Shown here: positions 12,001-15,000 of the stretch, one piece after another
Numbering within the stretch: position 1 is the stretch's first letter
Layout: each line of letters opens with the position of its first letter
Virus record (IMG/VR): IMGVR_UViG_2778261342_000002
Length of the DNA stretch: 26,434 bases
From: a virus
Lineage: Duplodnaviria > Heunggongvirae > Uroviricota > Caudoviricetes
Strand: one strand, 5' to 3'
Position numbers: made by a program

Positions 12001-15000
12001 TTCTATAGACCTATCTGATCTTCGTGGAATGGTCAGTTTTCCAGACAAAAGGTAATCACCATAGTCGTATGGCTATGAATCTTGTTGCTGCAGATAAGCA
12101 TTTTGTGATTGAAGTGGTCAAATCTCTCAAATGCAGTAAAATGCAGTGCGCTATAATTCAATAACGGAGGGAGTAAGGAGAAGTCATGAAAGATCAAGAT
12201 GTTAGGTTCGCGGTGCATCATAAGCTTTTGAAAGAATCGCATTTAGATCCAGACTGCCTTGTGGTCGATGAATTTTCCATATCCCTTGGCGCCAGTAGAG
12301 CAGACATTGCTGTAATAAATGGTGTTATACACGGGTACGAGCTCAAAAGTGAATATGACTCTTTGGAGCGTTTGCCTCTTCAAATCAAGCATTATTCTTC
12401 TGTAATGGACAAGGTTACTCTTGTCGTAGCTGAGAAACATCTTGAGGGAGCATTAAAGTTAATCCCAGGTTGGTGGGGCGTTAAAACGGTTTCTGTTGGG
12501 TCAAAAGGCGCCATTCTTATAAAGCACATGCGTGGAGAAAAGCTTAATCGAAACCATGACACATTGATGCTCGCTCAATTGCTTTGGAAAGATGAATGTA
12601 TCGACGTACTTGAACGATGGGGCTATTCCAAAGGAATCAAAAGCAAGCCCCGATTTGAGTTATGGAATATTATTGCGGAAAATATTCCAATAGCGAATCT
12701 CAGGCTTGAAGTCAGAACAGCCTTAAAGAAACGCGTAGGCTGGAAAGTTAAGGCTTGGCAGGCTGAGTCTGCGCCAACCAATAAAGCTGTCTCACGACTA
12801 ACGTAATATGGTGCGTATGTGCAACTTTACGCCATTCTTTAGAGCCGCCAGATTTGTTAGCGCCTAATGATCTTTGGTAAATGTAATCATCCCCCCAACT
12901 AAATGTGGAGCCAAAGACTTGATACTCTGGCGAACTAACAAGGGTAGTACATAAGTTTTTAGTTTGGCCCCATCCATTTCCTTTAACTGCGGTACCTTTT
13001 ACAAAGATCCATGAGGTATCGTTCGAATATCTCACTGAGACATACTGAGACATGAAGCGTGGGTCTACGCTCGTAATGGTAGAGCTAGCGGTGGGATAAT
13101 CACTAAAACTTGGCGTTCTTCCATTGCTAAAATTCTGTACTACGTACATCCAAAGATCGTATTCATGGCGCGGAATATGATGAACTTGATGTTGCGGTAT
13201 CCCTGCCTGTGATGCCGGGTATGCGGTTGAAGATAAAATCAAGTTTCTCCACGGAGCTTGGCCTGATAATGTGTTGACCATGCTTAATGCTTGTTGTTTT
13301 AAACTATCAGTTGCGTTTTGAATATCTCCAAAATCAATGATTACATCAATTAAACTAGGATGAATATTTAAGTGGTTAACCAGACTTGTGAATTGGTGCC
13401 ATGTCTGGGGGGTGATAGATATAGCGAGCCCATTGATTAAGTTGCGTTGAACAGCATGTATATAGTTTGTTGAATATGCGGGAGAAACAACAGGGATAAT
13501 TTCCTTACCATTTACTCTAGCATCTTGGATACACATATCTAGAGGATGATGGCGGCTCGAACCATGTTTATCTAAATATTTAACATCCAGCAAAACAGGA
13601 CGATTGGCTTTCCAGGATGCCGCAAGGTTAATACCGAAGTCAGATAAGTAAGAACTCAAACTCTTCTTGTAGCATTCGTTTTCATAATCCCAGTCTATGT
13701 CTGGAATGGTAATGATCGGAGTAAAACCAGAGAGCGTAGTTTGATCTAAAAGCATCAGAGATTCATATTCAGCAGGCTTCCATTTCAGCTGTGGATAATA
13801 TTGATGTTGACTCATTAAAACTCCTTAAAATCTTTACTTATTCTAAGTATAGTGTTATAGCGTAACGCCAATTGTTTTTATACAATTGAAAACATTGGGA
13901 AAAGTTGAGCTATATCTAAATTTACAAAATTGGATGTTATAGAAATCGAGGTTTCAACTAGGCATGGAACTGCAAAATTTTTAATGCCTGCACGCGAAAG
14001 TCGTTGGCGGGTCCTTTCCGGTGATCCAGACCGTTACGGGGCGGCGACCTCGCGCGTTTTCACTATTTATGAGATTTTTTGAGGGGGGTGGTTGTTGTTT
14101 AATTGTTTGGTATATCTAATTGATAAGTAAGGTGAAAATAAAATAAATACAACAACCTTACGATGTGTTTTGATGTCGTCAATGCGAAAAATGTCAATGA
14201 TATCAAATGGTTTTGCAAAAACACATGGTTGTTGTATCGCTTTTTATCGATGACTTATGGAGAGGAGATGGCCTTTTTATTGAATAAAAGTGATATGGCC
14301 TCCTCCATCGGTATCTCTGTTCAGGCATTTGATAAATGGGGCGTTCCTCCTGTTGAACGTCGGGGGAGGGAAGTTTTATATGACGTTAAAACTGTACTGG
14401 AGATAGATCGCGAGCGGCGACAACACAATCAGAGAACACCTGATGACGGGGGAGAACTGGAGGAAAGGCTGCTTCGGGCCAGAGCTGAACTGACAGAAGA
14501 ACAGGCTGTAGCTCAAAAACTTAAAAATCAGGTAACCGAAGGTAAGCTCATTGATTCAGACTTCTGCGTTTTCGCCCTCAGCAAACTGGCGATGGCATTG
14601 TCCAGTACGCTTGATTCCATTCCGTTATCCATGCAGCGACAGTTCCCGGATTTAACGCCACGTCATATTGACCATCTGAAAACCCTTATTGCAAAGGGCG
14701 CAAATCAGTGTGCGCGGGCAGGGGATAAATTACCGGATTTGCTGGATGAATATATCAGAGCAACAACTGAATAATATGATGGTTGCCGTTTCGGTTGCGC
14801 TGCAGCCTCTGGTCAGAGTTGTACCGATGACGGCAGTTGAATGGGCTGATCAAAATTATTATTTGCCTAAAGACTCCTCATACGGTGACGGCGAATGGAA
14901 AACGCTGCCATTCCAGATCGCCATCATGAACAGCATGGGGAATGATCAGATCCGCACTGTTAATCTGATTAAATCTGCCCGTGTTGGCTATACAAAGATG

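Follow-up and report, generated by a model that had tools for sequence, protein, structure and literature searches.

Locus layout

We analysed a 26,434-nucleotide (nt) stretch of a virus of the Caudoviricetes (IMG/VR record IMGVR_UViG_2778261342_000002; hereafter, the window), in which two convergent genes lie between the Rz spanin gene and the cos site of a lambdoid prophage. The genes encode a 206-amino-acid (aa) protein on the plus strand and a 355-aa protein on the minus strand (Table 1), and their 3' ends share 59 nt, exactly as an initial annotation of this DNA had placed them. The two proteins are distant homologues of cII and Beta, respectively, of the gop-beta-cII defence system of P4. 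The RefSeq annotation already names them "sce7726 family protein" and "beta family protein". The overlap encodes the last 19 residues of the Beta-family protein (the end of its terminal helix) on one strand, and a disordered, non-conserved tail of the cII-like protein on the other.

The best RefSeq match of the window was a lambdoid prophage with Q, holin, lysozyme, Rz, both genes of the pair, a Nu1/A-type terminase and lambda-like head and tail genes. The terminase small subunit gene lies 3' of cos. Where other E. coli prophages share these lysozyme/Rz and terminase flanks, antirepressor/Rha, PerC or YlcI/YnfO genes occupy the position instead, and the interval between Rz and cos is therefore a variable cargo slot, as had been proposed. 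The higher AT content of the region was likewise confirmed: GC content was 0.36-0.44 over approximately 11800-14400, versus 0.50-0.59 in the adjoining lysis and terminase genes (cassette approximately 0.40; flanks approximately 0.52-0.55). Neither gop nor a HigB-like or Xre-peptidase gene was found in the window. The minus strand from 13816 to cos, upstream of beta, contained no open reading frame (ORF) of at least 20 aa, and the interval between Rz and the cII-like gene contained short ORFs only, without support. A scan with Rfam assigned no RNA family to the cassette.

The 206-aa protein is a member of the cII/sce7726 family

The 206-aa protein matched the NCBIfam family sce7726_fam (NF033832; 1.3e-54; 184.9 bits, with a cut-off of 70), the PADLOC model "cll" (2e-31) and phrog_984, and its database relatives bear the Pfam domain PF26915 (Phage_P4_cII). 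BLASTP aligned it with P4 cII at 27% identity (E 1e-18). We modelled both proteins with AlphaFold2 using family alignments, and both models were confident. In the 206-aa protein, a PD-(D/E)xK nuclease domain with a restriction-endonuclease-like alpha/beta core was predicted with confidence at approximately residues 1-120, in agreement with the fold suggested by the initial annotation. A helical C-terminal domain follows, and residues 189-206 form the disordered tail. Residues E29, D40, E52 and K54 (E52xK54) were invariant across 40 family members, including P4 cII. The motifs VVDEF and GYELK, from which the fold had originally been proposed, were thus present and contain invariant E29 and E52/K54, but the central D40, which lies in RADIAV, had been overlooked. 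Profile searches of both families against the sequences of the PDB returned nothing meaningful. We regard the 206-aa protein as a member of a nuclease family with the PD-(D/E)xK fold, as modelled, for which cleavage activity is a prediction.

The 355-aa protein is a member of the Beta family

The 355-aa protein had been described as lacking an assignable motif. In contrast, it matched Pfam PF14350 (Beta_protein) over residues 6-342 of 355 (7.8e-56), and also phrog_9159. It fitted two PADLOC models of PD-Lambda-2_C (7.1e-32 and 2.9e-25) better than the P4 "beta" model (4.7e-10), and BLASTP aligned it with P4 beta at 22% identity (E 5e-7). The predicted structure is a (beta/alpha)8 TIM barrel with a C-terminal helical extension. 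No methyltransferase family was matched in Pfam, in NCBIfam or by fold.

The pair had also been likened to the sce7726/sce7725 families. This held for the 206-aa protein but not for its partner, which gave no sce7725 match in NCBIfam at E values up to 1; the sole match was a chance hit to ndhI (E 0.11). Nine other Beta proteins, including myxobacterial ones, matched no NCBIfam family. Further, the cassette can no longer be called undescribed, since it is homologous to beta and cII of a published system and its families are already curated.

The convergent, overlapping pair is conserved across phyla

We scanned genomes, one per species, with a cII alignment and confirmed 215 loci, the best 80 of which were examined by calling ORFs and searching them with hidden Markov models (HMMs) of the families. 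These 80 loci came from Gamma-, Alpha- and Betaproteobacteria, Myxococcota, Firmicutes, Bifidobacterium, Chloroflexi, Elusimicrobia and several lineages of the candidate phyla radiation (CPR). A Beta-family ORF was immediately convergent to the cII gene in 78 of the 80 (78 of 79 informative loci), and defence and prophage genes were among the neighbours. One of the two exceptions was cut by a contig end. The other, in Xenorhabdus koppenhoeferi (L054, 5001-5567), truly lacked Beta and was the only informative cII locus with none detectable within 2.8 kb downstream.

After removal of duplicates, 73 distinct loci remained. The 3' ends of the two genes overlapped in 70 of these, by at least 20 nt in 65 (median 44 nt), and the HMM-aligned conserved parts of the two genes also overlapped, with a median of 17 nt. 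Because the overlap recurs in this manner and extends into the conserved parts, the 59-nt overlap in the window is a trait of the family and not an accident.

The gene upstream of beta varied. As in the window, nothing recognisable was found there in 41 of the 73 loci, and these bare pairs take in all examples from Enterobacterales and Vibrionales. A PD-lambda-2B-like Xre-M78 peptidase gene, translationally coupled to beta, was present in 26 loci, preceded by a HigB-like gene in three (CPR) and by a DUF6932 gene in 23 (mostly Sphingomonadales and relatives); the HigB-like gene of L095 matched PD-Lambda-2_A at 1e-37. DUF6932 alone was found in four loci, a CI-type repressor with helix-turn-helix (HTH) and S24 domains in two and gop in none (0/73), and phmmer searches for gop in the best 80 loci gave no match. 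The association was also seen from the peptidase side: the family of PD-lambda-2B homologues comprised 4317 matches, and all three members inspected (L133-L135) lay in HigB/Xre-M78/Beta loci, each with a cII gene that converges on Beta and shares 50 nt with it. Operons of the PD-lambda-2 type (HigB-like or DUF6932, Xre-M78 peptidase, Beta) were regularly followed by a convergent, overlapping cII nuclease gene, as in L133-L135, L095, L109, L128, L103 and approximately 22 other alphaproteobacterial loci.

The cassette is mobile and both genes are under purifying selection

BLASTN detected copies of the cassette, 74-76% identical, in Klebsiella, Edwardsiella, Pectobacterium and viral contigs. Similarity started at 12080-12119 and ended at 13826-13939, and the flanks were unrelated; these points therefore mark the limits of the mobile unit. 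The ratio of nonsynonymous to synonymous substitution rates (dN/dS) of the cII-like gene was 0.04-0.06 in three comparisons with approximately 76%-identical copies from three other genera. That of beta was 0.05-0.08 in two comparisons; in the third, with L066, dS was saturated and gave no ratio. Thus, both genes are under strong purifying selection, and values of 0.04-0.08 in five of six comparisons confirm that they are genuine genes and not chance ORFs.

Among 5426 complete E. coli genomes, 126 contained a match covering at least 80% of a 2.3-kb query spanning the cassette. A second, divergent bare sce7726/beta pair, also convergent and with a 41-nt overlap, was found in 93 complete E. coli genomes, including O111, O121 and O55:H7. 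Its slot is the nin region of lambdoid prophages, between DUF977/Ea22-like genes and hokD (L131, 7001-8636, E. coli O111:H- 11128; L132, 6001-7636, STEC719).

Elsewhere, the Edwardsiella pair adjoins a type I restriction-modification (R-M) system, the Burkholderia pair lies near RHS toxin genes and the Vibrio mimicus pair is located among housekeeping genes. A census of 137 immediate neighbours of cII/Beta loci included PD-Lambda-2_B (24), PD-Lambda-3_B (4), PtuA, MzaA and type II and IIG R-M genes, together with Rz/Rz1, a P22 antirepressor domain, resolvases and caspase-like domains.

The pair of an Acinetobacter prophage is located directly downstream of a CI-like repressor gene. In two unrelated lineages, beta lies 3' of and co-oriented with a gene for a CI-type repressor (HTH and Peptidase_S24; L006-L008, 5001-7620, the Acinetobacter prophage; L069, 5539-7370). 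In lambda, rexAB has the same position relative to the CI repressor. By analogy, the location of beta directly 3' of a CI-type repressor suggests expression in lysogens.

In strain 2013C-3181 (L136, NZ_CP027312.1, locus 1491-3907), an insertion sequence (IS), IS3, lies inside beta, which is annotated as two fragments. The strain is viable, and its sce7726 gene is intact, encoding the same protein (WP_000654793.1) as a 100%-identical reference copy. In strain CUVET17-972, IS2 lies 159 nt upstream of beta and both genes are annotated at full length.

Upstream regions and transcription

Each gene is preceded by a strong Shine-Dalgarno sequence, as had been noted. Upstream of the cII-like gene, a block containing direct repeats of AATGCAGT and a TATAAT element was nearly invariant in eight cassette copies, in which the coding DNA was only approximately 75% identical. 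TATAAT, recognised at 12152 by the initial annotation, was kept in the cassettes of Klebsiella, Edwardsiella, Pectobacterium and viral contigs. From this conservation, the block is the probable promoter and operator of the cII-like gene. A sigma-70 consensus scan also returned TGGTCA-16-TAAAAT at 12115-12142; promoter-like sites numbered three, fewer than the 6.3 expected from shuffling. Upstream of beta, TTAGATnTAGCTCA and a TATAAA element were conserved among the cassette copies. The CAATTG-N8-CAATTG repeat described there was present, but at 13869-13888 and not 13867-13886; we rejected it as a family-wide operator, as it is missing from related cassettes.

No terminator-like site was predicted 3' of either stop codon, inside the opposite gene, and each transcript would therefore be expected to run antisense into the other gene. 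A weak terminator-like hairpin precedes the promoter-like block of the cII-like gene and, when Q is absent, may keep the late operon and the cassette apart.

The window is a Shiga toxin 2 (Stx2)-converting prophage. The stx2A product has 319 aa and begins MKCILFKWVLCLLLGFSSVSYS, and that of stx2B has 89 aa. The stx2 genes are preceded by three tRNA genes, and the small RNA family STnc100 (RF02076; 170 bits) was matched over its full length just 3' of stx2B. JNEC-KY175, the closest cassette-bearing RefSeq record inspected, has no stx annotated at the corresponding place, and the cassette is thus carried by both Stx and non-Stx lambdoid prophages.

Table 1. Coordinates of the cassette, its upstream elements and other features of the window.
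Feature	Position	Strand	Remarks
cII/sce7726-family gene	12186-12806	+	206 aa
Beta-family gene	12748-13815	-	355 aa
3'-end overlap	12748-12806	both	Beta residues 337-355 versus cII tail 188-206
Mobile two-gene cassette, including both upstream regions	12080-13940		From BLASTN boundaries and GC content
Conserved block upstream of cII-like gene	12128-12157	+	Alignment of 8 cassette copies
Direct repeats AATGCAGT	12130-12137, 12140-12147	+	10 bp apart
TATAAT	12152-12157	+	3' of the AATGCAGT repeats
Shine-Dalgarno AAGGAG, cII-like gene	12175-12180	+	5 nt before ATG
Shine-Dalgarno AAGGAG, beta	13821-13826	-	CTCCTT on + strand; 5 nt before ATG; kept in 9 copies
CAATTG-N8-CAATTG	13869-13888		Flanks TATAAA; lineage-specific
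-10-like TATAAA upstream of beta	13877-13882	-	
Conserved block upstream of beta	13877-13919	-	Alignment of 9 cassette copies
TTAGATATAGCTCA	13906-13919	-	In block upstream of beta
Rz spanin gene	11359-11811	+	Left boundary of cargo slot
Rz1-like lipoprotein ORF	11543-11758		Embedded in Rz
Weak terminator-like hairpin	12060-12077		Between Rz and the conserved block upstream of the cII-like gene
Lambda-type cos cohesive-end sequence GGGCGGCGACCT	14039-14050	+	Right boundary of slot; from sequence
tRNA genes (three)	6189-6437		Upstream of stx2
stx2A	6537-7496		319 aa
stx2B	7508-7777		89 aa
STnc100 match	7852-8067		3' of stx2B

Possible function of the cassette

On balance, we consider that the cassette is probably a defence or superinfection exclusion module, which represents the gop-less conserved core of P4 gop-beta-cII and is carried as cargo by an Stx2 lambdoid prophage. 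We infer this function because both proteins are homologous to P4 beta and cII and share their convergent layout adjoining cos, and because their relatives have published anti-phage phenotypes. The gop-beta-cII system guards against lambda and P1 (Rousset et al. 2022, PMC9122126), and orf184, a widespread phage accessory gene, triggers cell killing by it (Silas et al., bioRxiv 10.1101/2023.04.06.535777). Earlier studies cited in PMC9122126 report toxicity of gop when beta is missing. In PD-lambda-2, component A is HigB-like and component B is an Xre-peptidase, which is toxic alone and rescued by A; component C is "related to a P4 phage antitoxin" and is required for defence but not for neutralisation (Vassallo et al. 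2022, PMC9519451). The defence genes among the neighbours (type I R-M, PtuA, MzaA, PD-Lambda-3_B and type II/IIG R-M), alongside prophage genes, point in the same direction, as does the movement of the cassette between genera and slots with low dN/dS and conserved upstream regions. The predicted nuclease fold with its four invariant residues and the near-constant convergent pairing of the two genes, bare in 41 of 73 distinct loci, are likewise in favour.

In the mechanism that we propose, the PD-(D/E)xK nuclease would be a DNA-directed effector that is inactive by default, and the TIM barrel of Beta would act as a sensor or regulator that licenses the nuclease during infection. The convergent genes leave no room for a terminator, and colliding transcripts could set the ratio of nuclease to Beta. 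Late, Q-dependent read-through from the lysis operon would favour the nuclease gene and oppose beta.

A broader proposal is possible rather than probable, and we advance it tentatively. Here, the convergent pair of cII nuclease and Beta would be an autonomous two-component immune module, an ancestral core later joined by gop in P4 or by HigB/DUF6932 and the Xre-M78 peptidase in loci of the PD-lambda-2 type; the published definition of PD-lambda-2, with its three genes, would thus leave out a fourth that is conserved. The nuclease would be controlled by Beta as a new kind of TIM-barrel enzyme or sensor of infection, and convergent transcription across the obligatory 3' overlap would serve as a switch that sets the nuclease-to-Beta ratio.

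Several points weigh against a defence function of the pair. Every locus with a published phenotype has a toxin module (gop or HigB/Xre-peptidase) as well. Regulatory roles are hinted at by accounts of P4, in which beta was said to neutralise gop and cII was classed as a clear-plaque (lysogeny) gene. The published PD-lambda-2 clone from ECOR42 (genes 229385-232009, insert 228989-232396; PMC9519451) extends only 396 bp past beta, which cannot accommodate a complete convergent cII gene of approximately 600 bp. The clone thus probably lacks intact cII, even if ECOR42 itself has the gene; Beta would then act there without the nuclease, the contribution of which is conjectural. Fold comparison of Beta gave no specific functional match. 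The putative promoters of both genes were assigned by conservation alone, and scanning the minus strand upstream of beta returned no canonical sigma-70 site. Finally, the disruption of beta by IS3 is a single case.

This case bears on a toxin-antitoxin or addiction function, in which the cII nuclease would be constitutively toxic, Beta would be its antitoxin, and stabilisation of the prophage would be the main role with defence secondary. We think this unlikely. Neutralisation of the toxin gop by P4 beta, the toxin-antitoxin-like character of PD-lambda-2 and the tight linkage of the pair on mobile elements are all in keeping with it. However, the two genes are convergent with separate conserved upstream regions and do not form a co-directional bicistronic operon, and Beta, as a TIM barrel of 355 aa, does not resemble the small antitoxins that are known. 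Further, the viability of 2013C-3181 with a split beta and an intact nuclease gene argues that a nuclease that is off by default fits better than a toxin held by an antitoxin.

A role in the phage life cycle, as a regulator of lysogeny or as a late nuclease that degrades host or competitor DNA, is also improbable. It would account for the co-orientation of the cII-like gene with S-R-Rz, where Q antitermination could read through with only the weak hairpin between, for the naming of P4 cII as a clear-plaque gene and for the annotation "regulatory protein" in some records. Yet the pair also occurs outside prophages, beside type I R-M and flagellar or housekeeping genes and in CPR and other phyla. 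Within phages, it occupies differing slots (Rz-cos, the nin region, beside the CI repressor), as is typical of autonomous cargo, and many related prophages lack the cassette at the Rz-cos slot.

It is very improbable that the pair resembles an R-M system, with the TIM barrel of Beta marking self DNA as a nucleic-acid-modifying enzyme and the nuclease cutting unmarked DNA: TGT/DpdA scored no better against Beta than dozens of unrelated TIM barrels, Beta lacks a methyltransferase fold, P4 beta acts on gop and not on DNA, and the beta-disrupted strain with an intact nuclease gene survives, which a true R-M system would rarely allow. A decaying remnant of another element with no present function is scarcely credible: the DNA is AT-rich and foreign, lies at a prophage end and carries IS elements in some strains, but dN/dS contradicts this, both ORFs are full length for their families with intact catalytic residues and conserved upstream regions, and the cassette recurs in E. 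coli at the frequency given above.

The defence or exclusion function that we favour would have consequences beyond this phage. The locus in the window, a natural minimal version composed of a nuclease and a TIM barrel, offers the simplest construct for determining the role of each. Should the bare pair prove protective, a search tool for defence systems that demands gop or the HigB/Xre genes would overlook a module that occurs, as two or more variants, in approximately 2-4% of complete E. coli genomes, and in at least 215 of approximately 100,000 species-representative genomes from many phyla. Exclusion activity on an Stx2-converting phage would bear on which phages, including other Stx phages, establish in Shiga toxin-producing E. 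coli.

Comparison with known systems

The closest described relative is gop-beta-cII of satellite phage P4 (NC_001609; Ghisotti 1990, as cited by PMC9122126), listed as Gop_beta_cll in DefenseFinder and as the models "beta" and "cll" in PADLOC. In P4, gop (133 aa) is followed by beta (355 aa), cII (264 aa) is convergent to beta, and all three adjoin the cos end. Both proteins of the window are distant homologues of their P4 counterparts, and Beta has 355 aa in both. Further, the two loci share the convergent beta-cII pair, a position adjoining cos in a variable cargo hotspot, and carriage by a temperate mobile element of E. coli. In contrast to P4, in which gop lies upstream of beta, the window has no gop. 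P4 cII has a C-terminal extension of approximately 60 aa that the window protein lacks, and the P4 genes are separated by a 27-nt gap with a terminator, whereas those of the window overlap by 59 nt. The hosts also differ, namely the P4 satellite versus a lambdoid Stx2 phage. Protection and trigger-dependent death have been published for the three-gene P4-type unit only.

In PD-lambda-2, component C corresponds to the Beta-family protein, and the window protein fits its model better than that of P4 beta (7e-32 versus 4.7e-10). The window contains neither component A (the HigB-like toxin) nor component B (Xre HTH fused to an M78 ImmA/IrrE peptidase), the latter of which 26 of the 73 related loci possess. 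A cII-type nuclease, in turn, is not among the three genes of the published definition, whereas the window has one, and natural loci of the PD-lambda-2 type (CPR bacteria, Nitrospirota and others) carry a cII nuclease convergent to C. With respect to sce7726/sce7725, the 206-aa protein is a clear sce7726 member, but its partner is Beta and not sce7725.

A further comparison is with MmcB-like and other PD-(D/E)xK nucleases (3dnx SPO1766, Can2, NucS and type II restriction enzymes): the 206-aa protein has no detectable sequence similarity to any solved structure, and it differs from these nucleases in its extra helical C-terminal domain and its obligate TIM-barrel genomic partner.

In a literature search of incomplete coverage, we found no description of the bare beta/cII pair and no mechanism for gop-beta-cII or PD-lambda-2. 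Curated entries existed for both families, and a published defence system has the pair as its conserved core. The new observations are that this core stands alone in the window and in approximately half of the sampled loci, that its interlocked convergent architecture is conserved across phyla, and that loci of the PD-lambda-2 type usually carry the same nuclease partner.

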